From: Deltaproteobacteria bacterium
Lineage (GTDB): Bacteria > Desulfobacterota > Syntrophobacteria > BM002
NCBI GenBank assembly: GCA_022340905.1
Contig: JAJDNB010000037.1
Span: 2,150 to 66,149 of the forward strand
DNA: 64,000 bases
Direction: 5' to 3'
In this document: one piece after another, positions 9,067 to 57,360 of the stretch
How the letters are laid out: each line of letters opens with the position of its first letter
Position numbering within the stretch: the first letter of the stretch is position 1
Position numbers and translations under genes: made by a program
The notes under the pieces: model-generated
Told to the model about the DNA's origin: nothing
Seen by the model: only the letters and a program-made list of their open reading frames with translations
Database searches by the model: none

Positions 9067-9250
9067 AACCCGGATATTTCATGAATTTCTGTTGCGAGAT
9101 CACGAAGATGGGCGTGCCACCTGGCAACCACAGGGTGTTGGTTCCGAGGCGTACCTGCATGGTACGTCGCAGGGACCGACACCCGAGGACGCCTGGAAGG
9201 ACGGCCATATCCGTGGTCGCAGCAAGTGATTCATGAAATATCCGGGTTAG
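9067..9250. mobile_element. Family B 185-bp MITE-like element, copy B1
   Basis: Termini cccggatatttcatgaat ... attcatgaaatatccggg. The whole element is an imperfect long hairpin. Flanks are ttaa / ttag. Confidence 0.75.
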
Positions 9251-9388
9251 CTTCTGTTGCCATGGACATGGGTTGGATAATTGCGCAAAATCATACATAA
9301 TCGAAATAGGAGCTTGCAAGGGAAAGATACGCGTAGGGGCTAGATGGCAAGGACTGGGAATGAGGGAAGGATAATTTTTACTCTGTGA

Positions 9389-9835
9389 CTACCTGGGAGT
9401 AGGCTGCCCGGCACAGCACGGGCAAGCAGGGGCATGGGAGAACTCCATTTCGCAGAGCTGATATTCCTCCATCCAATCTGCTAGAATCTCACGTTGCTCT
9501 TCATCTAAAACATGGACTGCCTCCTTTATGTCCCCTAAAGATTCGTCCTTGCCTGTCCATATGCGAGCGAGAAGGGTAAGGAGCAGTCGATCTTGGACAC
9601 TTAGCTTAAGATTGTCGATATCGCGGAGAATCATTAGCAGGTCAAATTCCTTTGTGCCGCAGTTCCAGTACCTCTGCCATTTGAAAGGAAGGCAGCGCTG
9701 CATTAGTTCCATAAACCGCAGTTTTCGGTTCTTGTTATTCACCGAATGCATCAAGATCCCCACCTTAAGAGCAACAGGTTTGTTCATTAACAGATTTTGA
9801 GCTGAAATCCCAGCAAAATCGGCCGCTCCCACCAA
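9389..9835 (-). CDS. hypothetical protein
   Basis: 148 aa ORF with Cys-rich C-terminus (CPCCAG). No family recognised. Confidence 0.35.
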   Translation of the reverse strand: MVGAADFAGISAQNLLMNKPVALKVGILMHSVNNKNRKLRFMELMQRCLPFKWQRYWNCGTKEFDLLMILRDIDNLKLSVQDRLLLTLLARIWTGKDESLGDIKEAVHVLDEEQREILADWMEEYQLCEMEFSHAPACPCCAGQPTPR

Positions 9836-9895
9836 ACTCGGAAAACGAAAAGGATTTGGCAGTTCCCTATCGATTAGCTAAGGAAAAGCAAACTT

Positions 9896-10432
9896 CTATT
9901 CCTGCAAATTCTTGCCGAAGGTCTCGATAGCCTCTGGGATCTGTTTGCGTATGAAGGTCTCTTTTTCTAGCTCAGATAGCCTTTTGAATACCTGATATTT
10001 TGGGTGCGATTCGCTAAGCGGTGGAATGAAACTTGTACCCTGCTCTTTCAACTGTGGATATTGTTCGATTAGTTCAACAATGGGCACCTTACTCCCAGCG
10101 CCACTCTCCAACCAGTTGAGTCTTCTCATACATTCGAAGCGAAGCTGATCCAACAAATAGATCGAGATGTCGATGACCTCCATTTTCTCCGCTTTATCCA
10201 GCTGAAAAAAATCAGAGGTAGTACCCAGGTCCTTTATCCCCATAACCAGTTCGTACAAGGCAAAAATGTTCTGATCACCTGGAGAGATGAGAAAGAGTAG
10301 AGCCTTGTCTGACAGGTCGGACAGCCTGGTTTCCTCGTCCAATCTCTCTTTGAAGCGTCTCGACCAGGACCTAAACCCCCTTACCGCAGCCTGTTTACGT
10401 TTAAAAGAATCCAATTGGATAACTTCTGCCAT
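9896..10432 (-). CDS. hypothetical protein
   Basis: 178 aa ORF in the same orientation as neighbours. No family recognised. Confidence 0.4.
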   Translation of the reverse strand: MAEVIQLDSFKRKQAAVRGFRSWSRRFKERLDEETRLSDLSDKALLFLISPGDQNIFALYELVMGIKDLGTTSDFFQLDKAEKMEVIDISIYLLDQLRFECMRRLNWLESGAGSKVPIVELIEQYPQLKEQGTSFIPPLSESHPKYQVFKRLSELEKETFIRKQIPEAIETFGKNLQE

Positions 10433-10716
10433 TGCCTAGAAATGCTCTCTAGCTAAGTGAAATCGTCAGAAATTAAGGCTCCTTTCAATCCTCCCTTCTC
10501 ATGAACAACGAAGCCTTGATCATAGGGCCAACCGGAGTTCTCGTTTCGCAGAAGCTTCTTCGGGTCGATCTGGTCATAGGCTAAACCCTAGATCTCGGAT
10601 GTCAAATAATATTAAGGAGTACGCCTTGACTTGATCGTGATGCAGAATGTAGGAGACTAATGTGTCCTATATAGCATGACTGACAATATACCGCAAGAAA
10701 AACTGAACCGTCATTA

Positions 10717-11505
10717 TCATAATGAGCAGAAGTGGTCCCGGGCCGCATCAAACAACCTCATGAACTCCTCCATATCTTTTTTCGCAATTACTCTCTTTAG
10801 CTCCGAGATTATTCTCTCGAATTCCCGGAAAAATACTCCGTACGTCGAATTGAGCATTGGCATGGCCGCATAGAGGTCTGCATCCTGGTTGAGGAGATGG
10901 CTTATCTCCATCAGTCTCCTGTGGAATGCCGGAGTCGCAAAACGCTGTAGGCTCTTGGGGTCCATACCCAATGAATCTATTGTGAGTGCTAGAACGAGAG
11001 TGGTGAAGTGAGTAAGACCCTGCACCACCGCCATATAAAAGTCATGGACCTCTGGCGCAACCACCTCCACCTGGGCACCACTCTCCAACAAGACGGTGGT
11101 GAGCCAATCCAGCCATTCAGACCCTCGACCCGGACAAAGCACCACGGTTTGTCCAGTGATGTTGGGCTCGCCAGGGCCAAACAGCGGGTGAGTTCCTATC
11201 ACTGAGGATGAGGAAACCTCCAGCATCGTTCTCAGCACCTCGCTCTTGAGCGAGGCAATATCCATGAGTAAAGCATCATTCTTTACCAGATGTCCCATAC
11301 TGCGTACCACTTCTACCGTATGCTGCAAGGGAACCGCCACGAGCACTACATCACACTTTGGCGCCAAGTCTTGTGGCCTTATTTGGGTATCAAGATCAGC
11401 TACTGAGACCCTATACCCTAGCTCATCGAAATACCGATGAAACCAGCGGCCCATCTTACCATGGCCTCCAACAATGCCGATCTCTATGTTTTTTTCATGT
11501 GTCAT
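10717..11505 (-). CDS. tyrA: prephenate dehydrogenase
   Basis: NAD-binding IGIVGGHGKMG and TyrA-like body. The start is moved to the ATG at 11505 (MTHEK...) because the track M at 11532 is a TTG. Confidence 0.8.
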   Translation of the reverse strand: MTHEKNIEIGIVGGHGKMGRWFHRYFDELGYRVSVADLDTQIRPQDLAPKCDVVLVAVPLQHTVEVVRSMGHLVKNDALLMDIASLKSEVLRTMLEVSSSSVIGTHPLFGPGEPNITGQTVVLCPGRGSEWLDWLTTVLLESGAQVEVVAPEVHDFYMAVVQGLTHFTTLVLALTIDSLGMDPKSLQRFATPAFHRRLMEISHLLNQDADLYAAMPMLNSTYGVFFREFERIISELKRVIAKKDMEEFMRLFDAARDHFCSL

Positions 11506-11652
11506 CGATTGGAAGTCGTTCAAATCGTTCAAGTCGTATAAACCGCAAAAATCGTAAAACTATCGTAGAAGCCGTCTATCACAGAGGTCAGAAGTCGGAG
11601 ATCAGAGATCAGCTTTATGCCTGACCTCTGACATCTGATCTCTGACCTCTTG
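11505..11652. repeat. Family C palindromic repeat, copy C2
   Basis: gtcgttcaaatcgttcaagtcg...cgtctatcacagaggtcagaagtcggagatcagagatcag ... ctgacctctgacatctgatctctgacctct. Confidence 0.7.
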
Positions 11653-11688
11653 GTTCTGCTTGTTGTCAGCTGCCTCCTCTTCGCTGCT

Positions 11689-12945
11689 TTAGTGGTACAG
11701 CTGCTCAAAAATTTCCCAGAACTGGGGAAAGGATTTGGTCACACACGTCTCATTATCTATAAACACTCCCTCCGCCACTAACCCAGCGACAGCGAAACTC
11801 ATGGCAATGCGGTGATCATTATGGGAAGCAATCAAGGCTCCTCGGGGATTTCCACCTCTGATAGTCAGACGGTCTTCCTCCTCCTCAACCTGGACATTCA
11901 TTTTCTCTAGTCCTTCTGCGATTGCCCGAAGTCGATCGCTTTCCTTTATTCTCAAGTGGCCGACGTTAGTAATAGCCGTTGTGCCTTGGGCAAAGGCAGC
12001 GGCGACAGCCAGAGTCGGCACCATGTCAGGCATATTCTTCATATCCACCTCAATGGATCGAAGTTCTCCGCCAAATACGGTCACTCCGTGGTCATGCCAC
12101 TCAGCTCGACATCCCATCTGACACAGAATTTCCAGAAAAGCCAAATCTCCTTGCCGGCTGTCAGGAAGGATGTTTTGAGTCATTACCTTTCCCCCGGTGA
12201 TGGCAGCGGCTACCCAAAAATATGAGGCCGATGAGCAGTCTCCCTCCACATCGTAATGGCCCGCCTGGTAGCGTCCAGGTGCTTCCACCCGAAGATTATT
12301 CCCATCCAGCCAATGGGCCTTTGCACCAAATTTGGACATCCCTTCGAGGGTCACATCCACATAAGGCTTGGAAACCAGTCCCTGGACATTGATCTCAGTG
12401 GGCTGAGAAGCATAGGGCGCCACCAAGAGAATGGCAGAGACGAACTGACTCGATCGGCTCGCATTGACTGTGGTACTGCCACCTCTAATGCCGCTGCCCT
12501 GGATGCGTACAGGAGGATAGCCCCTTTCTTGTAGGCTTTCAACCACTCCTCCCAGGGGCTGCAGGGCGACCAGCAGTTCTTCTATGGGGCGCGTGTGTAG
12601 CCGTTCATTTCCGACAAGCACAGACGGTCCCTGGCTCAAACAGGCCACTGCAGTTAATAATCTCATGGAGGTGCCTGCATTTTCCAGATAAATAGGTTCC
12701 GACGGAGAATTTAAAACGCCGCCGGTGCCAATTACTTCTATTGCCTTAGGTGAATGTTTGATCTGTGCACCGAATCTTTCAAGGGCCTTTGCGGTGTAGC
12801 GCGTGTCATCGCACCAAAGTCCGTTGTGCAGCCAACTCCTCCCCTCGGCAAGGGCGGCCATAATGAGGTAGCGATGGGTAACGCTTTTCGAACCTGGAAC
12901 GGTTACATGTGCGTCAAGGGAATCAATGGTTTTTATCTGCTTCAT
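11689..12945 (-). CDS. aroA: 3-phosphoshikimate 1-carboxyvinyltransferase (EPSP synthase)
   Basis: 418 aa with EPSP synthase signatures (LPGSKSVTHR-like GSKSVTHRYL, full length). Confidence 0.9.
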   Translation of the reverse strand: MKQIKTIDSLDAHVTVPGSKSVTHRYLIMAALAEGRSWLHNGLWCDDTRYTAKALERFGAQIKHSPKAIEVIGTGGVLNSPSEPIYLENAGTSMRLLTAVACLSQGPSVLVGNERLHTRPIEELLVALQPLGGVVESLQERGYPPVRIQGSGIRGGSTTVNASRSSQFVSAILLVAPYASQPTEINVQGLVSKPYVDVTLEGMSKFGAKAHWLDGNNLRVEAPGRYQAGHYDVEGDCSSASYFWVAAAITGGKVMTQNILPDSRQGDLAFLEILCQMGCRAEWHDHGVTVFGGELRSIEVDMKNMPDMVPTLAVAAAFAQGTTAITNVGHLRIKESDRLRAIAEGLEKMNVQVEEEEDRLTIRGGNPRGALIASHNDHRIAMSFAVAGLVAEGVFIDNETCVTKSFPQFWEIFEQLYH

Positions 12946-12986
12946 TGAAAGTCACTATTCCACGGGCTCAGTTTCAGAGACGGGGA

Positions 12987-13173
12987 CTAGCCCGGATATC
13001 TCATGAATCACCTGCTCCGACCGCGGATTTGGCCGTCCTTCCTGGCGTCCTTGGGTGTCGGCCCCTGCGACGTACCGTTCAGGTACGCCTCGGGACCTAC
13101 ACCCTGCGGTTGCAAGGTGGCACGCCCATCTTCGCGGTCTCGCGACAGCAATTCATAAAATAACCGGGCTAGG
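12987..13173. mobile_element. Family B MITE-like element, copy B2 (inverted relative to B1)
   Basis: ctagcccggatatctcatgaat ... attcataaaataaccgggctag. Its terminal CTAG provides the TAG stop of aroE (...AEEIP*). Confidence 0.75.
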
Positions 13174-13990
13174 GGATTTCCTCCGCGGTTGCCTCCTCGA
13201 GCGCCTTTCGCATAACTTCAACGGGCGCCACTTTGCCAGTCCAGAGTTCAAACTGGGCAACACCTTGGAAAAGAAGCATATCGAGTCCGGAAACGCATCT
13301 GCATCCAGCCTTCTCAGCATCTTTAAGAAGTCTTGTTTTAAGCGGTCGATATACCATGTCCAAAACCACCATCCCCTCCCGCAGCCAGTGGACTGGAACC
13401 GGACTCTGTTCCTCTGTGGGGGACATGCCCACCGTGGTAGCATTCACCACGAGATCCGTTCTGAGATGATCCCAAGCTTGCCATGGCACAAAAGTGCAGT
13501 TCATCTCAGCTGCGAGCTTCTGTCCACGGGCTTCGTTGCGATTCATGATAAAGACCTGGGTATCATTTCTTTGTAATCCATAAATAGCAGACCGAGCCGC
13601 ACCGCCGGCACCCACAATAAGGCCGCGTTTACCCCTAAGCTCGGTCATCTGTGACAATGGTTGAACAACTCCCAGCCAGTCTGTATTCGTCCCACACAAC
13701 CTACCCGCTCGGGACACGATTGTGTTCACCGCCCCAATAGTGCGCCCTATCTCATCCACCTCGTCCAGATGGGCTATGATTTTTTCTTTGTGAGGAACTG
13801 TAATGCTGGCTCCTCGAAAACCCAAATTTCTCATAGCGGATACAGCTTCCCCCGCTTCATCTACCCGAAAAGCCAGATAAGCGAGATTCAACCCTAGGTG
13901 AGAAAAGGCAGCGTTGTGCATCTGGGGACTCAGGCTGTGGGCAACTGGATTGCCAAAAATAGCCACGTATTCGGTCTGACCGTCGATCAT
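13169..13990 (-). CDS. aroE: shikimate dehydrogenase
   Basis: 273 aa with AroE motifs (GNPVAHSLSP, GAGGAARS NADP site). Confidence 0.85.
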   Translation of the reverse strand: MIDGQTEYVAIFGNPVAHSLSPQMHNAAFSHLGLNLAYLAFRVDEAGEAVSAMRNLGFRGASITVPHKEKIIAHLDEVDEIGRTIGAVNTIVSRAGRLCGTNTDWLGVVQPLSQMTELRGKRGLIVGAGGAARSAIYGLQRNDTQVFIMNRNEARGQKLAAEMNCTFVPWQAWDHLRTDLVVNATTVGMSPTEEQSPVPVHWLREGMVVLDMVYRPLKTRLLKDAEKAGCRCVSGLDMLLFQGVAQFELWTGKVAPVEVMRKALEEATAEEIP

Positions 13991-14655
13991 TGCAACAGCT
14001 CCAAAAGCTGGCGCATTTTTGTCAGAGTGAGCTGTCCGGGAGCAGCCTCAGCACCGCTTTCCAGAGCGGCGTAAGTGAAAGCTCCCCCCATCAACAGGCA
14101 AGCGAGTCTGCTGATGCGACCCAGAGGCCCGAGACAGAAGGCCACCACCTTAATTCCGCGGTTATTACCCCGGTCAATGAGGTTTAACAATGAGATATTA
14201 TCTTCCACCCTTTGAGCCAGAGTCACCACCTTGATCACCCCAGTTCTTAGAATGGCCATTTGGTCAAACAATAATTGGAGATCTTTGTTTGCTGGAGTGT
14301 GCTCAAAATCATGGTAACTGAGAATCACCCGCTCCCGCATAACTGAAAGCTCGTCCGGCAGAGATTCTCCCGGCCGAAACTCCCAGTCTACATATGAGCT
14401 TCCACTCGTCGCAGCCCGAATGATGAGTCCCAGTTGCTCCTGCAGAGTGCCCGAAAAATTGCCCCCTTGCTCTACCGACCGCACCGTGGCAATCACTGGC
14501 AAAGGAGACCGGGGCAAAACGTTCTCCACCTCGGGCTCCCGGGTAACATCCAACCGCCACTCCACCAAATCAGCCCCCTCGTCTCGCGCCCTAATCATTG
14601 CCTCGAGCACTCGATCAGCCGCTTTCACCATCAATGACACGCAGATTTGGCTCAA
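13987..14655 (-). CDS. aroD: 3-dehydroquinate dehydratase, type I
   Basis: 222 aa type I DHQase-like. ATGA overlaps with both neighbours. Confidence 0.8.
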   Translation of the reverse strand: MSQICVSLMVKAADRVLEAMIRARDEGADLVEWRLDVTREPEVENVLPRSPLPVIATVRSVEQGGNFSGTLQEQLGLIIRAATSGSSYVDWEFRPGESLPDELSVMRERVILSYHDFEHTPANKDLQLLFDQMAILRTGVIKVVTLAQRVEDNISLLNLIDRGNNRGIKVVAFCLGPLGRISRLACLLMGGAFTYAALESGAEAAPGQLTLTKMRQLLELLQ

Positions 14656-14984
14656 TTCTTTTTCCCTGAAGGGGATTCACTTTCGCCAGTCACCAGACTT
14701 GACTGAATATCCCGAGAAGCGGCAAGTATTTCGCCGAAAATTTTCTTAACTGCCCCCCAGGCCAGGGGACCTTTGTTCTGGCTCGCCAGCCGCCTAAATA
14801 TTGCTTGTTCCCTGTCGAGGTCCATGGCACCCCTGCCCGACTTGTTTTTCAGCGCAGCGATCTCCTCTACCAAGAGCATACGTTGGTTGAGCAATCGAAG
14901 AATTTGATTGTCCAAATCGTCTATCTCCTGCCGCAAGCGCTGCAGATCAGACTTATCGTCTTTGATCTCATTTATTTTTCCCAA
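14652..14984 (-). CDS. chorismate mutase (AroQ class)
   Basis: The CM helix signature DLQRLRQEIDDLDNQILRLLNQRMLLVEEIAALK is present. A TTG start is proposed, overlapping the upstream stop, with a GGAAGAG RBS. The track ORF start at 15239 lies inside the upstream gene. Confidence 0.6.
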   Translation of the reverse strand: MGKINEIKDDKSDLQRLRQEIDDLDNQILRLLNQRMLLVEEIAALKNKSGRGAMDLDREQAIFRRLASQNKGPLAWGAVKKIFGEILAASRDIQSSLVTGESESPSGKKN

Positions 14985-15964
14985 ATGGTCTCCTCTACTT
15001 TGTGCCCAAAGTGTCGTCCAGCGGACTCCAGAGCCACGAGCACCTCGCTGCCTCTCGCCAACGAAACCACAGAACGAGGTTCGCCATCTGGAGCAGTAAG
15101 TCGGATCGTTTCGGCATTCTGCACTAAGGTGGAAATTTCTCCTCTCTCGGTCTCTGCCGTGACCAGTAACAGAGGCCGCCGCTCTATCTTCATACGGCCG
15201 ACTATAACTTCCTGTGCCCGCCCCTGATGATCTACGCACAGCACCGGATCCCCAGCCAGCAACTCTGAAAGGTAGCGGGTCTTGCCGCCGGGCACCCTAA
15301 TGTAGGCATGAACTGGACCTGCATTTACCCTAAAGGGGCGTGGAGCCACGTAGGGATTTTCCACACTTTCAGCGTGGATGAGAAAGAGCCCTCCGCTGCT
15401 GTTGCCCACGAGCATGCCCTGCCCCTGATCCATGTGGGTGCAGGTATCCACGCAGGCACGATCTCCTAAACCTGCCTGGCGCACCGTAACTATGCGCCCA
15501 GTGCTGAGATGGATCTGCTCTCCTTGCTCGCGAACCACCGCCAGTGTCTTTTTCAGTTCTAAAGGATCAAGAGTCTCAATCAGTATTCCGGCAACCCCCC
15601 GTTCTAAAACGGTGAGAGCACTTCTAGCCTCCTCGCTGTTGGACACCACCGTGAAAATGTTGTCCGCCTGAGCCACCAGATTCTCAAGGGGTATTATGGT
15701 CCAGTCTGTAGTACGCACCACTACCGTGGCGCTCTGGGCCAGCTTAAGGATCTCCTTTTCGTCATCCTGGCTCTCCACTTCGTAGAATACAACTTCTTGG
15801 TCGAGCTTTAGATCACCATCAGGGGCAATGGTAGCTATCCGTCCCAGTTCTTTAACTTTCTCATGGTATCCCTCCGGAACCATGACGGCAGCGGCCCCTC
15901 CCTCAAGAGCAGTTGTCACTAACGACTTGTTCCAGGGATCTACCTTTACCCAAGCTACTTTCAT
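14972..15964 (-). CDS. 3-dehydroquinate synthase II (archaeal-type)
   Basis: 330 aa. Matches DHQ synthase type II family that uses ADH as substrate. Confidence 0.8.
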
Positions 15965-16791: not shown

Positions 16792-16974
16792 GCGCAACTC
16801 CTTTTCCCAGCACGGGTAAACCTGCCAATAGGTGTTTTAAAAGTCTATGCGTCTATCTAGGTCAATACAAGGGTAATCCACCACATTTACGGTATACATT
16901 CAATAAACAGACCATTTCTCCCACCATGTCCAAACCAAAGATAAAAAGGAGCAAGTTCATATCGTTGAAATAAA

Positions 16975-19851: not shown

Positions 19852-20019
19852 TCCTTAACCTTAGTGGTCGCCGGGATGAATTTTACCCACAGAGAACGTA
19901 ACGGGCACAGAAACATAATGTTTCTATGTCCAAATACTTACCTGCACTACTATCTATAGTACTCTGTGGTCTCTGTGTCCTCTGGAGTTCATTCGTCTTG
20001 TCCCGTAACCCGATAATCT

Positions 20020-20646: not shown

Positions 20647-20710
20647 AGTGTTAGCCCACAATGTCCAAGTATTTGAATATCGCTAGTTCATAATCATAAA
20701 CATTACATAA

Positions 20711-20815
20711 ACCACAAAGAGCACCAAGGGCACAAAGAGAAAATAAAACTCAGATTAGCCTTGCGAGGAATTTTGACCAGAATAAACCCTTTGTGAGCTT
20801 TGTGGCCTTTGTGGT
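20711..20815. repeat. Family A palindromic repeat, copy A2, inside the trp operon
   Basis: accacaaagagcaccaagggcacaaagag ... ccctttgtgagctttgtggcctttgtggtg. Confidence 0.8.
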
Positions 20816-20821
20816 GCAGTA

Positions 20822-21610
20822 TCATCGTTTTCCGATTAGTTGGCGGAGCTTCTGTCCGGGGTCTTCGGCCCGCATGAGACTGGTGCCCACAAGTACTGCA
20901 TCAACACCAGCTGTCGCCAGAGACTGCAAATCACTCCGCGTCTGAATGCCGCTCTCACTGACAACGAGGAGATTCGAAGGAATGAGGGGACGTAACCTGA
21001 GGGTAGTGCCTAGGGACACTTGGAAGGTCCGCAGATTTCGATTGTTGATCCCGATGAGACGGGCCTCCGTCTCCAATACCCGAGACAATTCCTCTTCATC
21101 ATGCACTTCAACCAGGCAGGCCATCTCCAATTGACCGGCCATGGCCAAAAGTTCCTTCAGAGTGTTTTGCGGTAAAATGGCTGCAATTAAAAGCACTCCG
21201 TCAGCCCCTGCAGCCCGGGCAGTAAGAACTTGTATGGGATCTATGATGAAGTCCTTACAGAGAACTGGTAGAGAAACTACCCCCCTCGCTTGCTCCAGAT
21301 ATTCTAATCGGCCCTGAAAGAAGTCTTCTTCTGTAATCACCGAGATGGCAGCAGCTCCCGCCTTCTCATAACTACTGGCAACTTTATTTACCTCAAGACC
21401 GGGGCGAATTTGTCCAGCCGAAGGCGAGGCTTTTTTAATTTCGGCAATTACCGCCGGCTTTTCAGCATACTTCAAGGCAGCGAAGAAGTCGCGCGTCTTG
21501 GGGGCCGCAGACACAGTCTGTTCTATTTCTTTTTGAACTGACCTCTTTTTAAGCTCGGCTAGCCGTTCTTTCTTGCGTGCCACAATGTCGTCCAAAATCA
21601 TAGTATGCAT
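20822..21610 (-). CDS. trpC: indole-3-glycerol phosphate synthase
   Basis: 262 aa TrpC-like. The true start may be M4 (MILDDIVA). Confidence 0.9.
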   Translation of the reverse strand: MHTMILDDIVARKKERLAELKKRSVQKEIEQTVSAAPKTRDFFAALKYAEKPAVIAEIKKASPSAGQIRPGLEVNKVASSYEKAGAAAISVITEEDFFQGRLEYLEQARGVVSLPVLCKDFIIDPIQVLTARAAGADGVLLIAAILPQNTLKELLAMAGQLEMACLVEVHDEEELSRVLETEARLIGINNRNLRTFQVSLGTTLRLRPLIPSNLLVVSESGIQTRSDLQSLATAGVDAVLVGTSLMRAEDPGQKLRQLIGKR

Positions 21611-22978: not shown

Positions 22979-23017
22979 GATCTCCTCCTTTATAAAAAAC
23001 ATTCGATACCTGAATGG

Positions 23018-23103
23018 ACCACGAAGTTCACCAAGAGCACAAAGGAAAGAGCCTTACAATTTTTGGAACCCCTTTGTGTTCTTCGTGTGCTTTGCGGTTT
23101 AAC
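23018..23103. repeat. Family A palindromic repeat, copy A3, inside the trp operon
   Basis: ccacgaagttcaccaagagcacaaaggaaag ... cctttgtgttcttcgtgtgctttgcggttt. Confidence 0.75.
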
Positions 23104-23127
23104 CATCTAGAGTATGAGATGAATATC

Positions 23128-36664: not shown

Positions 36665-36850
36665 TAAATCCTAAATCCGAATATCGATCCGCCGTAGGCG
36701 GACTAAACAAATCAATCTGGATGTGAGATCTGAGATCTGAGATGTGGGATAATGAATACCGATGGAAGTCTTGAATCTCACATCCCATATCGCACATCCC
36801 ACATCCGTAGGTGAAGATCTGTTTCGTGCTTAGGATTTAGGATCTTGAAT
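36665..36850. repeat. Family D palindromic repeat, copy D2, nested with an outer inverted repeat
   Basis: Outer aatcctaaatcc / ggatttaggat. Inner atctggatgtgagatctgagatctgagatgtgggata ... tctcacatcccatatcgcacatcccacatccg. Confidence 0.65.
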
Positions 36851-37355: not shown

Positions 37356-37434
37356 GGCTAGCTACTTTCCATTGCAAGCATTCAGAACTTGTCGTCTCAA
37401 CCAAAGAGCACGAGAGCAGAGTGGTTGCCAATCA

Positions 37435-37535
37435 CTCGATGTGTGATCTGAGATGTGGGATGTGGGATTGAAAAACCTAGTCCAGACTTTGTCACATCTC
37501 ATATCGCATATCCCGCATCCGATTCCTAAATCGGT
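37435..37535. repeat. Family D palindromic repeat, copy D3
   Basis: cgatgtgtgatctgagatgtgggatgtgggattg ... cacatctcatatcgcatatcccgcatccg. Confidence 0.65.
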
Positions 37536-38224: not shown

Positions 38225-38300
38225 CAGTTTTCAGGTGTCAGGTTTCGGGTTTCAGATGTGAGGAAAAAAGAATCTGAAACCTTAACACTGAAACCTTATT
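38225..38300. repeat. Family E palindromic repeat, copy E1 (ggtttcag units)
   Basis: ttttcaggtgtcaggtttcgggtttcag ... tctgaaaccttaacactgaaacctt. Confidence 0.55.
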
Positions 38301-39049: not shown

Positions 39050-39230
39050 CAGTAATCCAAATCCAAAATTCCAAACCTCAAACACCCAATTACGAGGTTT
39101 TAGGTTTCAGTGCTCAGGTTTCAGGTTTTTCTTTTTGTTCTTCTTTTGCTGACGCCTGAAACCTGACACCAGAAACCTAAATACTCAAGTCCACAATCTG
39201 CAGTCTGCAATCCAAAATCTTCAATCTAAT
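39050..39230. repeat. Family E palindromic repeat, copy E2, plus flanking aatccaaaat direct repeats
   Basis: gaggttttaggtttcagtgctcaggtttcagg ... gcctgaaacctgacaccagaaacc, followed by caatctgcagtctgcaatcc. Confidence 0.55.
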
Positions 39231-41261: not shown

Positions 41262-41272
41262 AATCCCTCTCC

Positions 41273-41459
41273 TAGCCCGGATATTTCATGAATTGCTGTT
41301 GCGAGACCGCGAAGATGGGCTTACTACTGGGTAACCACAGGGTGTTGGTTTCGAGGCGTACCTGAATGGTACGCCGCAGGAGCCAACACTCGAGGACGCC
41401 CGGAAGGACGGCCAGATCCGTGGTCGTAGTAAGCCATTCATGAAATATCCGGGCTAGCC
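41273..41459. mobile_element. Family B MITE-like element, copy B3
   Basis: ctagcccggatatttcatgaat ... attcatgaaatatccgggctag. Its terminal CTAG supplies the purC TAG stop. Confidence 0.75.
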
Positions 41460-42341
41460 TTGGGTAAGACGTTCAAGTGCCTCCAAGTAACGGGTCCTGG
41501 TGTTCTGCACTACCTCGTCAGGAAGCGGAGGGGCTGGCGGCTTGTGATTCCAACCGCTTCGGTCAAGGTAATCCCGCAAGTACTGCTTGTCATAACTCTC
41601 CTGACTCCGACCCGGCTCATACTTGTCTGCTGGCCAGAATCTCGAGGAATCTGGGGTAAGTACTTCATCTATTAAAGTAAGTCTATTCCCTATTGTGCCG
41701 AATTCAAACTTTGTATCGGCTATGATTATGCCACTCTCGCGAGCAATAGCTGCCCCTTTCTGGTACAAAGCTATGCTGAGATCCCGAAGTTTTTCTGCCA
41801 AGTTCGTCCCCACCTTTTCACTCAAGGTGGCAAAATCTATGTTCTCATCGTGGAGACCCCGCTCAGCCTTTGTTGAGGGGGTAAAGATGGGCGATTCCAG
41901 GCGAGAGGACTCCAAAAGTCCCACGGGAAGATTAATTCCGCATACAGATCCCTCTCTCTCATAATCCTTCCAACCGGATCCGCTGAGATAACCACGCACA
42001 ATACATTCCACCGGCAGAGGTTTAGCTTTGGTCACCAGCATACTGCGACCCCTCAATTCCGCCGCATACGGGAGGCATTGTTCGGGATACTCATCAACCT
42101 TCACAGTTACCAGGTGGTTATCCACCACGTCGGCCAGAGCCTCAAACCAGAAGGTGGAGATTTTGGTCAAAATCCTGCCTTTGTCAGGAATTGGCGTGGG
42201 CATTACCACGTCATAGGCAGAGATTCTGTCAGTGGCAACTATGAGCAACTGTTCCCCCAAGTCATAAATGTCGCGTACCTTTCCCCTTCCGCGCAGGGTA
42301 AGGTCAGGAAAATTGGTCTGAAACATCAGCACAGACGTCAT
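41454..42341 (-). CDS. purC: phosphoribosylaminoimidazole-succinocarboxamide synthase
   Basis: SAICAR synthetase motifs. The ATG at 42341 has a GGAGGAAGG RBS. Confidence 0.85.
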
Positions 42342-42377
42342 ATTATCCTTCCTCCACCTAATCACCTTTGAAATTAG

Positions 42378-42470
42378 ACCACAAAGTACACAAAGAGCAC
42401 AAAGAATGAAAAAAACAGGAGATTAGACCGCCACTGAATCCTTTGTGTCCTTTGTGATCTTTGCGGTTGT
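42378..42470. repeat. Family A palindromic repeat, copy A4
   Basis: gaccacaaagtacacaaagagcacaaagaatg ... cctttgtgtcctttgtgatctttgcggttg. Confidence 0.8.
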
Positions 42471-42558
42471 AACTTTGCGGCCCTACCGGATACTAGAACG
42501 GACAAAGGGGCGGCCCAACGCGCTTTGAGGACCGCCCCCCTAATGATGAGAGTCGATT

Positions 42559-44547: not shown

Positions 44548-44973
44548 AATTCTCTCCTCTTAGTCTCTCCTGCCAATTTTTAAAACTCTGAGCCGAAGCA
44601 AGGTCGTTCCGTGGTATGTTTTCAATACCTATCAAAAGGAACAGAAAAAATACAACCAGCAGAATGATTGATAACGCCGATCCTCTAAAGCCCTATAAAA
44701 CTAGCGCATTATACGCATTTGAAGCAGCCGGCGCATCTCCATCCCAGCCTGCCTCCCCGAGGCGGACCATAGGCTTACTGCGCCCACAGCCGGTGCAGAT
44801 ACCGGCCTGCTTACCGCTGCCATTGCCAGTTGTTGTTCTTCTTGGCTCCTCAGGTATCGATAGACTGCGGTAACCGCCGCAATCATGCGTTTCTTTTTCC
44901 ATGCGTCCATTGTCATCAAATAGATCCTTGCTTTCCTGAACTTCTTCCACCCAATCCAAATGGCTTAATTGTC

Positions 44974-45055
44974 ACCACAGAGTACACAAAGAGCACAAAG
45001 GAAATAAGGATACTGAATTCGTCTTTCTTTGTGTTCTTCGCGGTCTTTGTGGTTT
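44974..45055. repeat. Family A palindromic repeat, copy A5
   Basis: caccacagagtacacaaagagcacaaaggaaat ... ctttctttgtgttcttcgcggtctttgtggtt. Confidence 0.8.
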
Positions 45056-45124
45056 ACTTATATCTTTGTAATTTCAACCAAAATTAATTTAGGCCACTCA
45101 CTGCCAAGGTTTGGCCTTACGCGA

Positions 45125-45679: not shown

Positions 45680-45720
45680 CTTCTAACTCGCAGTTTCTTG
45701 ATGAATAAAAGGAAGTATTA

Positions 45721-45822
45721 ACCACAGAGTTCACAGAGGCCACAGAGTAATTAAAAAATTCTAACCCGGCTTGACTCAATCTTATATATCTTCCTTTGTG
45801 TTCTCTGTGTGCTCTGTGGTTC
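45721..45822. repeat. Family A variant (CACAGAG units), copy A6
   Basis: accacagagttcacagaggccacagag ... cctttgtgttctctgtgtgctctgtggtt. Confidence 0.75.
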
Positions 45823-45847
45823 AAATGGTGCCGTCTCAAGGAATAGT

Positions 45848-49244: not shown

Positions 49245-49387
49245 ACTATACCTTATCCCAGATAGGCCCTAAAGTCGCTTTTCTACACCGGTAAATAGAG
49301 CTACGTTTGTACGTTTTTCCTCGACAGAGAGATGCACCCTCGGGGTTAATACTTTCGGACTCCCATTATAACAGGTTTTAAAAATCC

Positions 49388-50605: not shown

Positions 50606-50630
50606 AGCTTCCTCTTTGCCTTTTAACTTC

Positions 50631-50710
50631 ACCACAGAGGGCACAAAGAGCACGAAGGCATTCTCAAACATAAAATAACTACTTTGTGTACTTTGTGATC
50701 TTCGTGGTTA
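50631..50710. repeat. Family A palindromic repeat, copy A7
   Basis: accacagagggcacaaagagcacgaagg ... ctttgtgtactttgtgatcttcgtggtt. Confidence 0.8.
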
Positions 50711-50725
50711 AGCTTGCTTCTGACC

Positions 50726-51244: not shown

Positions 51245-51759
51245 AGTTCCTTGAATACGAGGGCTGAAAGAGACTTACGGTCGGATTTCTGCTGCCCATG
51301 TTTAGGGTGTCCAATAGCGAGAACGGCCATCAGTTCATAGGTTCCGGGCGTCTCTAGGATCTCCCCCACTCTCTCTTTGTTCTTCAAGATTTCGCCAAGC
51401 CAGACACCTCCCAGACCCAAAGCATGAGTAGCAAGCCACATATTCTGTAAGCAGGCACCTATCCCCTGACAGTCCTTGGTACGGTCATAGCTATCACGAT
51501 TATCGATAAATACTGCAATAATCACAGGAGCGTTTCGAATGATCTCCCGGTAGCGGGTTTGCTTGGCAATCTCATCTTTGACTTTTGCATCTCGAACAAC
51601 GGCGAAACGCCACGGCTGGTTGTTGAGTCCAGAGGGAGCCCAACGACCAGCCTCTAGGATGGTTTGGACATCGTCCTTGCCCACCGCCTCATCCGTATAC
51701 TGCCTTACGCTTCTCCGAGAAAATATAGCTTCCAACACAGCTTGACCAGATTTACTCAT
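51241..51759 (-). CDS. nitroreductase family protein
   Basis: RRSVRQY...nitroreductase fold motifs. Confidence 0.8.
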   Translation of the reverse strand: MSKSGQAVLEAIFSRRSVRQYTDEAVGKDDVQTILEAGRWAPSGLNNQPWRFAVVRDAKVKDEIAKQTRYREIIRNAPVIIAVFIDNRDSYDRTKDCQGIGACLQNMWLATHALGLGGVWLGEILKNKERVGEILETPGTYELMAVLAIGHPKHGQQKSDRKSLSALVFKEL

Positions 51760-51877
51760 GTGCTCTCCCGTGTTCTCACCCCTGACCTTAGGCCAGTAGG
51801 AATTGAACCACAGAGGAAAGAGATCACGGAAGCAATTCCAAATATTTAAGTACTTGAGATTGCAATTTTACTTAACT

Positions 51878-51907
51878 GTTTTGTGGTCTCTGTGTGCTCT
51901 GTGGTTT
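51878..51907. repeat. Family A solo arm (A8, left arm degenerate)
   Basis: ttttgtggtctctgtgtgctctgtggtt. Confidence 0.5.
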
Positions 51908-52133
51908 AATTGCTTGATATTTTTCAGATTATAGCGATATCCAGCAAACCCGTCAATGATTAAGGCAGAACGCACAGTGCAGGGCGTCTTTTTATCTCTT
52001 CCGCGGAAGGGTGAATAGTAATTGGGTTAAGAATCAGGAGTTAGAATCGAAAAATCAGCAATAAAGAAAATGAGCGACTCTTCAGTTTAACCGACTCGCT
52101 ACCGAGTTTTGAATCCAACCCCCCAGTCGAACG

Positions 52134-52793
52134 CTATGCGCTCTGCGCTTGGCGTTTGAATCGCAGTGCATTGATCACCCCGTGGCAACGGCAGGCCGTG
52201 GCCACTAAGATGCTCTTCTCGGAGCATCTCACCGCCTCGAGAAGCAGCCACAACGTCGATAACTTATAGCCACCGACTCCTGGCGCTAGTTGACGGCTGC
52301 GCACCACCAGGGTCTGATAGCCTGGAACCTCTATTTGCTGGATAAGGTCATACAAATTAGCTTCACGAGGCTTTCGAGTGACGCTACACATTTCTTTTGG
52401 CTCTTGACAGTCATCGGGACAGAGAAAGGATGCAAAACTCCCGTAGAGAACCCCTCCTTTGCCTCTCGTGGGGTTGGGAATTTCCTGGTCGAGAACTGTG
52501 GGGACGACAAGTGGTATAACCGTCCCTTCCTTGGCCAACTGTTGACAGAGATAGAGGAAAGCAACATGTTCGGGAATTGCTGGGATAATCCATTCATCTC
52601 CCTTACCATCTTGCGATAAAAGAAAGTCAACAGCATCTTGTTTCAGGGGCTTCATAGGCTCATCCCTTAGGTGAGCCAATGCATCATCACGGTAGTCCAC
52701 CACGAGCACCTTACATCCCTTTTTTTGCTGCAAAATGCGCTTCGCCGCTAGAGAGCCAAAATGTCCTGCTCCAAGAATCCAGAAAGATTCCAT
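52134..52793 (-). CDS. hypothetical NAD(P)-binding Rossmann protein with C-terminal Cys cluster
   Basis: ILGAGHFGS GxGxxG motif, with CPDDC...C...CRCH downstream. The start is uncertain (52793 or 52844). Confidence 0.45.
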   Translation of the reverse strand: MESFWILGAGHFGSLAAKRILQQKKGCKVLVVDYRDDALAHLRDEPMKPLKQDAVDFLLSQDGKGDEWIIPAIPEHVAFLYLCQQLAKEGTVIPLVVPTVLDQEIPNPTRGKGGVLYGSFASFLCPDDCQEPKEMCSVTRKPREANLYDLIQQIEVPGYQTLVVRSRQLAPGVGGYKLSTLWLLLEAVRCSEKSILVATACRCHGVINALRFKRQAQSA

Positions 52794-52994
52794 ATATCCT
52801 ACCCCTTTATTGATCTTCATTATTCTAACAACACGAGATAGCAAACAGCAAACTGTTACATCCCAACACTAGCCGAGGCGGGCGGAAGTTGACACCCCCT
52901 CTTTTTGATCTTATAGTGCAGCGGAATCGCAGGAAAGCTACATGCAAGTATGAAATACCAAGCGTGAAACAGATTTCAATCAACAGATAAGGTG

Positions 52995-53075
52995 ACGTGC
53001 ATATCTCCTGTGAGACCTAAATCGAACTTGGCATCTAGTATTGCATATCTCAGATCACACACCTCACATCCAGAA
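52995..53075. repeat. Family D partial copy (D4)
   Basis: atatctcagatcacacacctcacatccag. Confidence 0.4.
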
Positions 53076-53082
53076 AATAAAC

Positions 53083-53916
53083 ATGTTTGTAGATACCCAT
53101 TGCCATCTTGACTCCGACGATTTTGACAATGATCGAAAAGATGTCATTGCCAGGGCAAAAGGGGCTGGAGTGCAGCAAATTGTCGCCATCGGAATCGACG
53201 TGCCCTCTTCTAAACAGGCCATCGCTTTGGCTGAAGAGAACGGTGAGATTTTTGCCACCGTAGGCATCCATCCCCATAATGCCAAGGTCCTCACTTTCGA
53301 AGACATCCAGGAGTTGCTAAGCTTGGGAGGCAAACCACAGGTTGTGGCATACGGAGAAATTGGTCTTGATTTCTTCCGCAACCATCAGCCCCAATCTGTA
53401 CAAGTTGCTTGCATGGAGGAACAACTCAATTTGGCCCATCAGTTAGGATTGCCCGTAGTCATTCATAATCGCCAAGCTCATAAAGAGATTCTCCAAATCT
53501 TGCGCAAAAATGAGGTCTGGAGAATAGGCGGCGCCATGCACTGCTTTTCAGGCGACTGGTCCTTTGCGAAAAAATGTTTAGATCTAGGTTTGTATCTCTC
53601 CATCGCAGGACCCGTCACCTTCAACAAATCACAAATCCTGCAGGAGTTGGCCCAGAATTGTCCCCTTGAGCGATTACTTATTGAGACAGACTCCCCCTTT
53701 CTAGCTCCCGTACCCAAACGTGGCAAAAGGAACGAACCCGCTTTTTTAGTTTATACGGCAGAAAAAATTGCATCCTTGCGAAAGCTCTCTGTGGCTGATA
53801 TAGCACGGCAGACCAGCTCAAATGCTCGCCGGCTTTTTAAGCTACCAACTCCAGATGAATCATCAGCGGCAATTAGGGTTAACCACAAAGAGCACAAAGG
53901 AAATTTGAGATTTTAG
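53083..53916 (+). CDS. tatD: TatD family metal-dependent hydrolase
   Basis: MFVDTHCHLD start and conserved His/Asp/Glu ligand pattern. The C-terminus runs into repeat A9. Confidence 0.85.
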   Translation: MFVDTHCHLDSDDFDNDRKDVIARAKGAGVQQIVAIGIDVPSSKQAIALAEENGEIFATVGIHPHNAKVLTFEDIQELLSLGGKPQVVAYGEIGLDFFRNHQPQSVQVACMEEQLNLAHQLGLPVVIHNRQAHKEILQILRKNEVWRIGGAMHCFSGDWSFAKKCLDLGLYLSIAGPVTFNKSQILQELAQNCPLERLLIETDSPFLAPVPKRGKRNEPAFLVYTAEKIASLRKLSVADIARQTSSNARRLFKLPTPDESSAAIRVNHKEHKGNLRF

Positions 53917-54026
53917 ATTTAAGATTGTAGATTGAGGCAGGTAGGAACTAGAAGATTCCCCAATCTGCAATCTACGATCAACAATCGAAAATTATATCTC
54001 TTTGTGATCTTTGTGTTCTTTGTGGT
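53882..54026. repeat. Family A palindromic repeat, copy A9, with a second palindrome (agattgtagattg / caatctgcaatctacgatc) nested in its loop
   Basis: aaccacaaagagcacaaagg ... ctctttgtgatctttgtgttctttgtggtag. Confidence 0.8.
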
Positions 54027-54067
54027 AGAAATCCTTAATTAATAGCATCGCCACCGTAAAGACAAGC

Positions 54068-54673
54068 ATGATCGAAGATACAAGAAATGCGGACTTTGTT
54101 TTGGCTTCGGCTTCACCGCGGCGTCGACAACTCTTGACTCAAATTGGCCTTTCCTTCCAAGTCGTTCCCAGCAAAATCGCGGAAATCAACCATGGTGGTA
54201 TGAAGCCACATGTGCACGCCACCCACTTTGCCGAGGCCAAGTCCAAAGAGGTGGCCAATCGCCACCCGGACAAATGGGTTCTTGGGGCAGACACCATTGT
54301 TGTAAGTGATGAGGAGATCCTAGGAAAACCTGCCGACTTCACCGAAGCCTCATCAATGCTTTCTCGACTGGCTGGGAGAAGCCATCGCGTTATCACTGCT
54401 ATTTGCCTCGTACACTCTGGAATGCAAGTGGTGGAGAGTGAATGGGTTGAGACCAAGGTCTTCATGAGAAGCCTCAGTGTGGAGGATATCGAGGGTTATA
54501 TTAGAACAGGTGAACCAATGGACAAAGCGGGTGGTTACGGCATCCAAGGCATTGGCGGCTGTCTGATCCAGCGGATCGAGGGCTCTTACTCCAATGTGGT
54601 CGGACTGCCTTTGTGCGAGACATTGGAGCTGTTACGTCGTCATGGGGTCGTTGATCCCTTTAGCGAGTACTGA
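54068..54673 (+). CDS. maf: Maf-like nucleoside triphosphate pyrophosphatase
   Basis: LASASPRRR...GADT...KAGGYGIQG motifs. Confidence 0.85.
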   Translation: MIEDTRNADFVLASASPRRRQLLTQIGLSFQVVPSKIAEINHGGMKPHVHATHFAEAKSKEVANRHPDKWVLGADTIVVSDEEILGKPADFTEASSMLSRLAGRSHRVITAICLVHSGMQVVESEWVETKVFMRSLSVEDIEGYIRTGEPMDKAGGYGIQGIGGCLIQRIEGSYSNVVGLPLCETLELLRRHGVVDPFSEY

Positions 54674-54709
54674 GGGATCAATCGCGGCTAAAAGCCGCTC
54701 CCACAAAAT

Positions 54710-55408
54710 TTGGATAAACAAATGTCAATTGCAGAAAATCTTTCGCGGATCGAAGAAAGAATGGCGGAGGCGGCCATACGCTCGGGCCGTGCACCTGGCT
54801 CGGTCAAACTTGTAGGAGTAACCAAGACTGTAGATCTGGACCGGATTAAAGACGCAGTCTCTGCAGGCTTACAAATACTGGGCGAAAACTACGTCCAAGA
54901 AGCCCGGGACAAGATCAGGGAACTCAAAGACCGAGTGAGTTGGCATTTTGTAGGCCGATTGCAGACAAACAAAGCAAAATATGCAGTAAAACTCTTCGAC
55001 GTAATTCAGACGGTTGATTCACTTAAGCTGGCACAAGAACTAAATCGCCGTGCCCAGCCATTGGGCCGGACGATTCCCATCATTATACAGGTAAACTTGG
55101 CCAGCGAGGTAAGTAAAGGAGGAGTTGAGCCGTCAGAATGTCTTTCCCTAATCAGACACGTCTCCGTGCTGGAAAACCTTCAGATCCGAGGGCTTATGAC
55201 TATGCCCCCATTCTTCCACCAACCTGAGCGGGCTAGACCCTATTTTGCCCAGCTGAGAGAAATGAGTCAAAAAATAGCCGAGGCGCAGGTGGCAGGTGTT
55301 GAGATGAATGAATTGTCCATGGGTATGTCTGGAGATTTCGAAGCAGCTATTGAGGAAGGGGCAACCCTGATTAGGGTAGGAACTGCTATTTTTGGGGAGC
55401 GACCGTAA
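54710..55408 (+). CDS. yggS: YggS family PLP homeostasis protein
   Basis: 232 aa TIM-barrel PLP enzyme of the YggS/PROSC family. Confidence 0.85.
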   Translation: MDKQMSIAENLSRIEERMAEAAIRSGRAPGSVKLVGVTKTVDLDRIKDAVSAGLQILGENYVQEARDKIRELKDRVSWHFVGRLQTNKAKYAVKLFDVIQTVDSLKLAQELNRRAQPLGRTIPIIIQVNLASEVSKGGVEPSECLSLIRHVSVLENLQIRGLMTMPPFFHQPERARPYFAQLREMSQKIAEAQVAGVEMNELSMGMSGDFEAAIEEGATLIRVGTAIFGERP

Positions 55409-56138
55409 GCCTCTGGCGCATGGTCTCATATAAAGCCATTGCCCCTGCTGCCGCCGCATTTAGTGAATCCAGTCTCCCGTGCTGGGGAATTGATGCGTGC
55501 AAATCACAGGTCTGCCTTATGAGCGGTCGAATACCCTTAGCCTCACCCCCTATTACCAAAGCAGTGGGCTGGCAAAGATCCAGTTGGTAGATGGGGCGAC
55601 CCCCTTCCAAGATCAAACCCACCACCCATATCCCCTTCTCCTTCAATAGGGCTAATGTTCGCCTTAGGTTAGTTACCCGGGCAACCTGACAATGCTCAAG
55701 TGCGCCTGCAGAGGCTTTGGCCACCGCTGCTGTTAGCGGTGCCGCCCGATCTTTGGGCACTACCACCCCATGAACTCCACAAATATAAGCCGTACGAATC
55801 AAACTGCCCAGGTTTTGAGGGTCTTCAATTCCGTCCAATACTACAATCAAGGCTGGGCCTCTAGCCAGAGAAACCTCAACAATGGTCTCAATCTCCACAT
55901 ATCCATAGGGGGAGAGAAAAGCTATGATTCCCTGGTGTCTGACCGTCCCTGCCTTGGCTTCCAAACGTTGGCGATCGAAGGTTCGAACCTTAATCCCAAG
56001 CCCCCGCGCTTGGGTAAGGATCTTGTTGACCTTGGTGCTGGATCCGCTTCGACTAATCCAGATTTCTCTTACCGTATGGCCCCGGGTGACCAGAGCTTCC
56101 TGGATAGGGTGAATACCGTAAAGGATCTCGTCTGCCAT
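55386..56138 (-). CDS. rlmB: 23S rRNA (guanosine-2'-O)-methyltransferase, SpoU/TrmH family (RlmB-like)
   Basis: N-terminal L30e-like domain plus SpoU methylase motifs. Confidence 0.8.
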   Translation of the reverse strand: MADEILYGIHPIQEALVTRGHTVREIWISRSGSSTKVNKILTQARGLGIKVRTFDRQRLEAKAGTVRHQGIIAFLSPYGYVEIETIVEVSLARGPALIVVLDGIEDPQNLGSLIRTAYICGVHGVVVPKDRAAPLTAAVAKASAGALEHCQVARVTNLRRTLALLKEKGIWVVGLILEGGRPIYQLDLCQPTALVIGGEAKGIRPLIRQTCDLHASIPQHGRLDSLNAAAAGAMALYETMRQRLTVAPQK

Positions 56139-56220
56139 AGAATAACTATGTTTGTTGTTAACAAATGTTTTGGCAGCAGATTTCGGGTTTCAGAACTGCA
56201 CAACCTTGGCGATCTGTTGT

Positions 56221-56835
56221 TTATTCTAGGTGTAAAAGATCTTTGACCTGCGGCAACACAACCTCTCTTTGGTAGTGCGCAGCCAAAATGATAGTCTTTA
56301 AAGCCTCCACCGCCTCATCGAGATCATCATTGACGACCAGATAGTCATACCAGGAAGCTTCCAGCAGCTCTCCCATAGCGTTTTCAAGCCTGGTCTCTAG
56401 ATCATCCCCTTCTTCGGTACCCCTCTTGAGAAGTCTTTCTTTTAAAGTCTCACGGTCAGGCGGCAAAACAAAAATGAAACACGCATGGGGAAAGCGCATC
56501 TTGACTTGACGAGCACCCTGAACATCTATTTCCAGAAGTACATCCTCGGCTCGGCGCCGTTGTAGTTCTAGCTGGTCTGCGGAGGTGCCATAATAGTTTC
56601 CGTGGACAAAGGCCCATTCCACGAAAGAGCCCCCCTGCCTCATGGTAAGAAACGTTTCCTCTGATACAAAATGATAGTCTCTGCCCTCACGCTCTCCATG
56701 GCGCGGCGGTCTTGTGGTGTGGGAGATGGAATATGCGAGCCGGGGGAGCTTCTTCCTTACATTCTCGCGCAAGCTCGATTTTCCCACCCCCGATGGTCCA
56801 GATAGTACGAAGAGTTGTCCACTGGACTGCATCAC
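56221..56835 (-). CDS. gmk: guanylate kinase
   Basis: [10 protein letters not shown]-loop and Gmk body. Confidence 0.9.
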
Positions 56836-57107
56836 TTTGATTTGCTATCACCGTCCTTGCCGATTGAATCAGCCATGAACCGTTGGGCAATTGTCTCAGC
56901 CTGCACCCCAGACAATATGACATGGTTGCTGTCGGTAATAATGATCGCCCGAGTGCGGCGGCCCATGGTGGCATCAATGAGTTTTTTGGACATCTTGGCA
57001 TCTTCTTTCAGACGCTTCATTGGTGCAGATCCTGGGGAAACGATTGCAACCACTCGATCCGCCACCACCGTATTGCCAAAGCCGATGTTTAAAAGTTTTC
57101 CCTCCAT
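56832..57107 (-). CDS. DUF370 / RemA-like protein
   Basis: [21 protein letters not shown] is the DUF370 signature. An ATGA overlap couples it with gmk. Start is 57107 or 57137. Confidence 0.75.
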
Positions 57108-57174
57108 CTCAACCCCACCTTCTGAAAAATGGCTCACTGAACCGGTTGCCTCAGTAAATTAACCCAACTCGACC

Positions 57175-57360
57175 TAGCCCGGATATTTCATGAATCACCT
57201 GCTGCGACCAAGGATATGGCCGTCCTTCCTGGCGTCCTCGGGTGTTGGCCCCTGCGACGTACCGTTCAGGTACGCCTCGGAGCCAACCCCCTGTGGTTGC
57301 CAGGTGGCACGCCCATCTTTATGGTCTCGCGACTGCAATTCATGAAACATCCGGGCTAGA
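57175..57360. mobile_element. Family B MITE-like element, copy B4, inside the yicC-remA-gmk operon
   Basis: ctagcccggatatttcatgaat ... attcatgaaacatccgggctag. It begins 3 nt after the yicC stop. Confidence 0.75.

Follow-up and report, generated by a model that had tools for sequence, protein, structure and literature searches.

ERIC (IRU) sequences are imperfect palindromes of 100-200 bp that are found, in either orientation, between genes in regions that are transcribed, and their conservation among species is high; at gene 3' ends they alter the fate of the mRNA (reviewed in PMC10969869). The Correia (NEMIS or CREE) elements of Neisseria and the RUP elements of pneumococcus are small bacterial miniature inverted-repeat transposable elements, or MITEs, that have inverted ends, which are co-transcribed with neighbouring genes and give rise to hairpin RNA that is cut by RNase III (PMC10969869). 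Family B, the element considered here, occurs in a 64,000-nucleotide stretch of DNA from a bacterium of the Desulfobacterota (assembly GCA_022340905.1, contig JAJDNB010000037.1, positions 2,150 to 66,149 of the forward strand; hereafter the window), which holds four full copies (B1 to B4) and a solo end. It resembles ERIC in size, palindromic form, genomic setting, variable orientation and conservation, and Correia and RUP in its small size and inverted ends. To our knowledge, no transposase partner has been established for ERIC, the sequence and hosts (enterobacteria) of which differ from those of Family B, whereas the end of Family B is clearly of IS1380 type. In Correia and RUP elements TA is duplicated and pairing is confined to the ends, while Family B is paired from one end to the other and has flanks that act like a 4-bp repeat. 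Family B is a new MITE family, probably moved in trans by a DDE transposase of the IS1380 family of insertion sequences and inserting at YTAR, that is (C/T)TA(A/G), tetranucleotides that are duplicated.

Among prokaryotes, IS1380 transposases serve as the outgroup to piggyBac, a superfamily of eukaryotic DNA transposons whose ends read CCC and whose 4-bp TTAA target is duplicated, with rare CTAA and TTAG variants (PMC10813416). Members of the IS1380 family (e.g. ISEcp1, ISPme1) are similar to Family B in their CCC-starting ends, which match at 14-17 of 18 positions, and in their YTAR flanks. However, they carry one DDE transposase of 463-467 aa in a unit of ~1.7 kb, while Family B lacks any gene and encloses a hairpin unrelated to them. 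Family B, with CCCGG ends and flanks reading CTAG, TTAG, CTAA or TTAA, also resembles piggyBac, but its target is the looser YTAR, most often in the form CTAG, and its hosts are bacteria. The bacterial relatives of piggyBac would share its preference for TTAA-like targets, and a common, unannotated repeat of Desulfobacterota is now linked to a transposase family; in a 2024 review of prokaryotic MITEs, the term "IS1380" occurs 0 times (PMC10969869).

Ends and transposase family

The core of Family B is bordered by CCCGG...CCGGG, and its inverted ends extend over 22-26 nt (in B3, arms of 26 nt at 96%). The 18-nt end motif occurs nine times in the window, against 0.05 expected, and is found at all eight ends of the full copies. 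The four copies and the solo end recorded in the preliminary description of this DNA are real, each full copy lying within 1-2 nt of its original placement. The element comprises ~178 bp plus target repeats (185 nt overall, under ~500 bp) and is non-coding; none of the reading frames stays open throughout the copies (at best in 17 of 29), coding-type periodicity is absent, and many copies have stops in the ATG-initiated frame. Pairwise identity in the window is 84-89%. The copies are unrelated beyond the flanking tetranucleotides, which rules out the segmental duplication that the preliminary description had named as a competing origin.

Elements that share these ends and also encode a transposase were found outside the window. 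A search of plasmids with a 31-nt end query recovered a locus on an Endozoicomonas plasmid (L120) with a 1.71-kb unit, CCCGGATATTTCATAAAT...TTTATGAAATATCCGGG, flanked by CTAA on both sides. The transposase of this unit is frameshifted and matches Pfam PF13701 (1e-90) and the NCBIfam IS1380 model above its cut-off. Its homologues, of 463-467 aa, are abundant in metagenomes, and 80 metagenomic IS1380 loci, fetched with their alignment, were examined for ends. About 50 of the 80 possess an end that differs from the Family B 18-mer at no more than 4 positions, and ~22 have both ends, ~1.7 kb apart around the transposase match and flanked by CTAG, CTAA, TTAG or TTAA. The matching ends read CCCGGAT.TTTCATGAA... 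and differ from Family B by 1-4 mismatches in 18. The transposase was confirmed to be intact in two loci: L184, with 1 and 2 mismatches at its ends and 352 bits on the IS1380 model, and L140, with 2 and 2 mismatches and 402 bits. IS1380 identity was judged by NCBIfam NF033539 (cut-off 180 bits), on which the transposases score 239-402. The few clusters with named transposase hosts come from Salinisphaera, Endozoicomonas and Thalassotalea.

Judged from sequence, the ends of Family B in all likelihood place it with the piggyBac-related transposases of the IS1380 family and not with IS5. Such a transposase would recognise the 18-22-bp inverted ends, CCCGGAT(A/G)TTTCATGAAT, and mobilise Family B in trans in these hosts. 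A scan for the end motif, with one genome per species, gave at least 116 stretches (loci bear L numbers throughout). The proteins that recur across them are ABC transporters and regulators, with no recurrent transposase, and the genes beside solo or odd ends (L057, L080, L019, L063, L097 and others) are housekeeping only. A literature search for the end sequence found nothing, BLAST of the full element against plasmids gave no match, and a scan of viral contigs returned one uninformative match.

Target site and stop codons

The flanks of Family B are YTAR, as first described. The two tetranucleotides that flank an element agree completely in 49% of 111 elements (small elements pooled with insertion sequences), compared with 26% after permutation. 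The first flank base matches in 68% vs 49% permuted and the fourth in 68% vs 53% (both P<0.001). The flanks indicate a 4-bp YTAR target duplication that has since decayed, in keeping with the TTAA duplication of piggyBac.

In the window, the genes next to the copies were identified correctly in the preliminary description (aroE, purC, yicC and others, by Pfam), and their order is aroD-aroE-[B2]-aroA, purC-[B3] and yicC-[B4]-remA-gmk. The aroE stop, a TAG read from the complement of 13169-13171, lies within the right-hand CTAG of B2, and the stop of purC (41454-42365, minus strand), at 41454-41456, lies within that of B3; B4 is placed within the yicC-remA-gmk gene string. In ~9 of 40 copies the element overlaps a stop codon at its flank. 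The orientation of copies relative to neighbouring genes is random: in tandem settings, 7 are sense and 8 are antisense. While the element had been thought to supply these stop codons, a related locus argues otherwise: in L085, where the element is absent, the reading frame of aroE closes at the same codon, 24 codons past the same tryptophan, with its TAG inside a CTAA site. The target thus held the stop before insertion, and the duplication restores it.

Outside the copies, the window contains ~600 YTAR sites, of which 120 are CTAG. As YTAR is so common, clustering at gene ends would reflect loss of insertions inside genes and not scarcity of targets. The YTAR targets contain TAG or TAA, so that survivors would pile up at gene ends, where the duplicated target recreates the stop codon and the upstream gene is therefore unharmed. 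This would explain how elements within operons can coincide precisely with stop codons and leave the genes intact, a point useful for annotation.

Spread and mobility

About 40 full-length copies, mostly of identical 185-nt length, were recovered by BLAST and nhmmer from ~15 metagenome-assembled genomes (MAGs) of Desulfobacterota, in both orientations and in unrelated contexts. The hosts are labelled Syntrophobacterales, Desulfobacteraceae or "Deltaproteobacteria" and include the chromosomes CP070689, CP070692 and CP070843. At least nine assembled contigs end inside Family B, one of them the JGI contig that carries the aroE of the window, since a high-copy repeat has this effect on assemblies; the element would explain why metagenome assemblies of these organisms break there.

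Relatives with the same gene order but without the element show that Family B is mobile. L085 is syntenic with window positions 9392-14676 (67-78% protein identity) and lacks B2 between aroE and aroA; similarly, the gene order of 55389-60305 recurs in L039, with no B4 between yicC and remA. L095 and L025 share an orthologous spacer that is ~90% identical, which the element has entered twice, at sites separated by 29 nt and in opposite orientations. These two insertions are independent, and each serves as the empty site of the other. A high-identity empty site that would give the duplication length directly was not found; L053 and L042 differ by a larger indel. The dispersed copies, inverted ends, empty orthologous sites and ~40 copies in other genomes uphold the earlier view of a MITE-like mobile element.

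Identity among copies is 86.8% within genomes and 86.3% between genomes, and the nearest neighbour of a copy lies in the same genome for only 1 of 34, while the proteins of the hosts are 57-92% identical. Recent bursts in each genome do not fit, because they would result in tight genome-specific clusters, and neither does neutral decay of ancestral copies, because this would leave shared positions. The lack of clustering by genome points to purifying constraint on the whole interior, repeated transfer from host to host, or both.

Longer variants of 230-400 nt have Family B arms together with extra internal modules or partial internal duplications (Table 1), and are possibly nested or composite elements.

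The hairpin interior

Each copy in the window folds as a single long imperfect hairpin (for B3, -112 kcal/mol, z = -11). RNAalifold on 34 aligned copies gives 62 pairs along the whole length. Of the pair cells, 96.6% are standard, compared with 31-43% when the partners are slid, and 20 of the 62 pairs show double changes, vs 8.4±1.7 in shuffles (0 of 500 reach 20). The hairpin covariation suggested in the preliminary description is real, although a DNA palindrome can yield the same signal as a structured RNA. The example of compensation given there for B3 held in part: it contains one double change, and the rest are two wobbles and one broken pair.

The constraint on the hairpin appears to be strand-biased, with G·U tolerated and A·C not. 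Where Watson-Crick is the most frequent state of a pair, G·U is seen as a minor state in 33 pairs (78 cells) and A·C in 11 (13 cells), and transitions in unpaired columns are balanced (48 vs 55). Variants shared by several copies comprise 16 G·U and 2 A·C; private variants comprise 19 G·U, 9 A·C and 26 other mismatches. Persisting lineages have kept forward-strand pairing, and recent private changes are mostly disruptive. The forward strand, defined as the better-folding one, is the plus strand for B1 and B3 and the minus strand for B2 and B4 (two copies per orientation). It folds better in 34 of 34 copies (-112 vs -95 kcal/mol), a result inherited from one ancestor and thus not independent evidence.

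The interior, which is unrelated to that of the insertion sequence, is a long imperfect hairpin whose pairing is kept by compensatory change, apparently on one strand. As copies in different genera lie near one consensus, it would be constrained beyond transposase binding, and this constraint is most likely the fold of a single strand, either RNA or DNA during movement. Such conservation across genera, apparently of one strand, is the feature that could lift Family B above an ordinary MITE, and, if expression data become available, it makes the element a concrete test case for whether the interiors of MITEs are functional.

The same ends also bound unrelated small elements, including a family carried by Desulfosudaceae and by MAGs of uncultured Desulfobacterales. 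Gamma- and Betaproteobacteria hold a further unrelated MITE family, ~163 nt long. This family, of which 20 full copies were recovered, has IS1380-type ends and YTAR flanks, and one of its strands folds much better in 20 of 20 copies (alifold -69.5 vs -27.1).

Alternative transposases and functions

IS5-group transposases also duplicate 4-bp YTAR targets, so that the YTAR flanks and their 4-bp repeat signal would suit a MITE derived from, or moved by, an IS5-group or IS1182 transposase, as the preliminary description proposed. However, every gene-bearing element with matching ends belongs to the IS1380 family (PF13701; NF033539, 239-402 bits), and no scan recovered an IS5 or IS1182 transposase with matching inverted repeats or any such element bounded by CCCGGATATTTCATGAAT ends, which makes this origin highly improbable. 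The TA that forms the invariant core of both flanks is what an IS630/Tc1-mariner-type MITE would duplicate within CTAG, the adjoining G/C then being part of the element. IS630 prefers TA within CTAG (Tenzen and Ohtsubo, 1991, as cited in PMC2170065), the terminal G...C changes jointly to A...T in 6 of 8 informative copies, and TA-only duplication was first favoured from a hand tally of flanks. This model was dropped after the permutation test, as it does not predict that the outer flank positions match left to right far above permutation; in addition, no IS630 element with these ends was found, and the IS630 fragments near the copy at L119 lack them. An IS630-type origin is therefore very unlikely. 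A REP/REPIN-like hairpin that travels as single-stranded DNA, driven by a RAYT or an IS200/IS605-type tyrosine transposase, would account for the strand-biased constraint and for minimal end-loop-end hairpins of 44-55 nt in some genomes (L116, L011, L104), and the ends of Family B loosely resemble those of Escherichia coli REP (GCCGGAT...TATCCGGCCTAC). Inverted ends combined with a target duplication, and the existence of DDE insertion sequences with the same ends, speak against it, as do the lack of a recurrent RAYT-like gene among the 116 loci listed and the inconsistent orientation of the window copies relative to a mostly one-directional gene strand; there is scarcely any likelihood of such an origin.

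Movement by an IS1380-family transposase, the preferred explanation, faces difficulties of its own. Family B and the insertion sequences have only the terminal 18-22 nt in common, no IS1380 transposase was found in the window or among the 116 listed loci from Family B host genomes, and the named hosts of matching insertion sequences are mostly Gammaproteobacteria and not Desulfobacterota. The copies are 11-16% apart, with no sign of recent movement, and only about half of the elements have the same tetranucleotide on both sides, which leaves duplication of TA alone as a remote possibility. Furthermore, a double-strand cut-and-paste mechanism leaves strand-specific conservation of the hairpin unaccounted for, and the strand bias of the consensus arms is itself modest (7 vs 4 in Family B and 7 vs 1 in the unrelated 163-nt family).

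A different emphasis would make Family B mainly the gene for a structured RNA of ~180 nt, read from one strand and spreading by means of IS1380-type ends. The interior would then be the functional product, for instance a small regulatory RNA or a processing or stability module. Covariation above all shuffles, tolerance of G·U but not A·C with balanced unpaired transitions, the greater stability of the forward strand in every copy, an interior near one consensus across divergent hosts and the same asymmetry in the 163-nt family all favour this possibility. However, no Rfam family reaches its gathering score in the window (permissive settings give noise-level microRNA matches only), and consensus scans find no sigma-70-type promoter or terminator within the element. 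Because copies are randomly oriented relative to abutting genes, read-through transcripts carry either strand. The common ancestry of the 34 copies and the modest bias at consensus level also count against an RNA gene, which overall seems rather unlikely. With similar reserve, IS1380/piggyBac-type ends may be viewed as a cross-phylum shuttle for unrelated hairpins, the cargo being a functional single-stranded molecule. Its cargoes would be the 185-nt family of Desulfobacterota and the 163-nt family of Gamma- and Betaproteobacteria, each conserved across genera and constrained to fold on one strand. Such a cargo could be a mobile structured RNA gene or a single-stranded DNA intermediate of movement, the latter unexpected for this transposase class.

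Copies in the window and other small elements

The positions of the copies and of related elements are listed in Table 1.

Table 1. Positions of Family B copies, of other elements with the same ends and of further repeats in the window. Coordinates refer to the window or to the locus named.
Feature	Sequence	Position	Strand	Flanks, neighbours and remarks
Copy B1	Window	9065..9250	+	Core 9069-9246; flanks TTAA (9065-9068) and TTAG (9247-9250); Exo_endo_phos gene 8275-9051 (-) on one side, unannotated open reading frame 9389-9835 (-) on the other
Copy B2	Window	12987..13172	-	Core 12991-13168; CTAG both flanks; aroE 13169-13990 (-), aroA 11689-12945 (-)
Copy B3	Window	41272..41457	+	Core 41276-41453; CTAG both flanks
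Copy B4	Window	57174..57359	-	Core 57178-57355; CTAG both flanks; yicC 57363-58244 (-), stop 3 nt from B4; remA 56832-57137 (-)
Solo right end	Window	61439..61468	-	...ATTCATGAAATATCCAGG + CTAG; remnant of a truncated copy
Paired insertion	L095	640-1000		Orientation opposite to that in L025; neighbouring YTAR sites
Paired insertion	L025	4415-4790		Orientation opposite to that in L095; neighbouring YTAR sites
Longer variant	L024	2434-2785
Longer variant	L077	6676-7024
Longer variant	L083	6237-6639
Longer variant	L099	4003-4314
Longer variant	L053	62-301
Longer variant	L043	3451-3695
163-nt family	L098	7-170, 4547-4710
163-nt family	L002, L016, L018, L027, L029, L031, L044, L049, L054
163-nt family	L064, L067, L074, L084, L089, L096, L109, L113
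Minimal hairpin	L116	~1846-1893
Minimal hairpin	L011	~1295-1355
Minimal hairpin	L104	~2544-2600
Minimal hairpin	L030	~3836-3870
Second family	Window	298-389, 19885-19989, 20701-20827, 23017-23110, 42377-42479, 44973-45065, 45720-45832, 50630-50720, 51786-51917, 53999-54038, 58281-58380, 62706-62805
Third family	Window	5339-5470, 6518-6549, 11513-11673, 36705-36760, 37430-37461, 38226-38296, 39094-39186, 53030-53074

The solo end has a pfkB-type kinase gene (minus strand) on one side and lptF/lptG (plus strand) on the other. The mechanically called open reading frame of lptF/lptG starts at 61360, but the Pfam match covers it only from residue 59 onwards; translation from an ATG near 61529 yields a typical N-terminus (MRRTLLRY). 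With the likelier start near 61529, the solo end is upstream of the gene, in a divergent intergenic region.

The minimal end-loop-end hairpins have a short loop and YTAR-like flanks and are REP-like in size. A plasmid of Candidatus Magnetococcus massalia (NZ_LO017728.1) carries a ~185-nt element with the same ends (L119, 4001-4187). Annotated IS630 fragments ~1 kb from this copy were considered as a partner and rejected, as they lack these ends; their proximity is apparently coincidental.

Two further repeat families are present in the window. The second family consists of inverted pairs of three 9-nt units (e.g. ACCACAAAGAACACAAAGGGCACAAAG ... CTTTGTGTACTTCGTGCTCTTTGTGGT), ~25-35 nt apart, which sit in short gaps after genes and look like hairpins with a 9-nt period. 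The third comprises 7-nt periodic units, TCTGACC or TCTGATC and their complements (GATCTGAGATGTGGGAT), arranged as inverted pairs in intergenic gaps.

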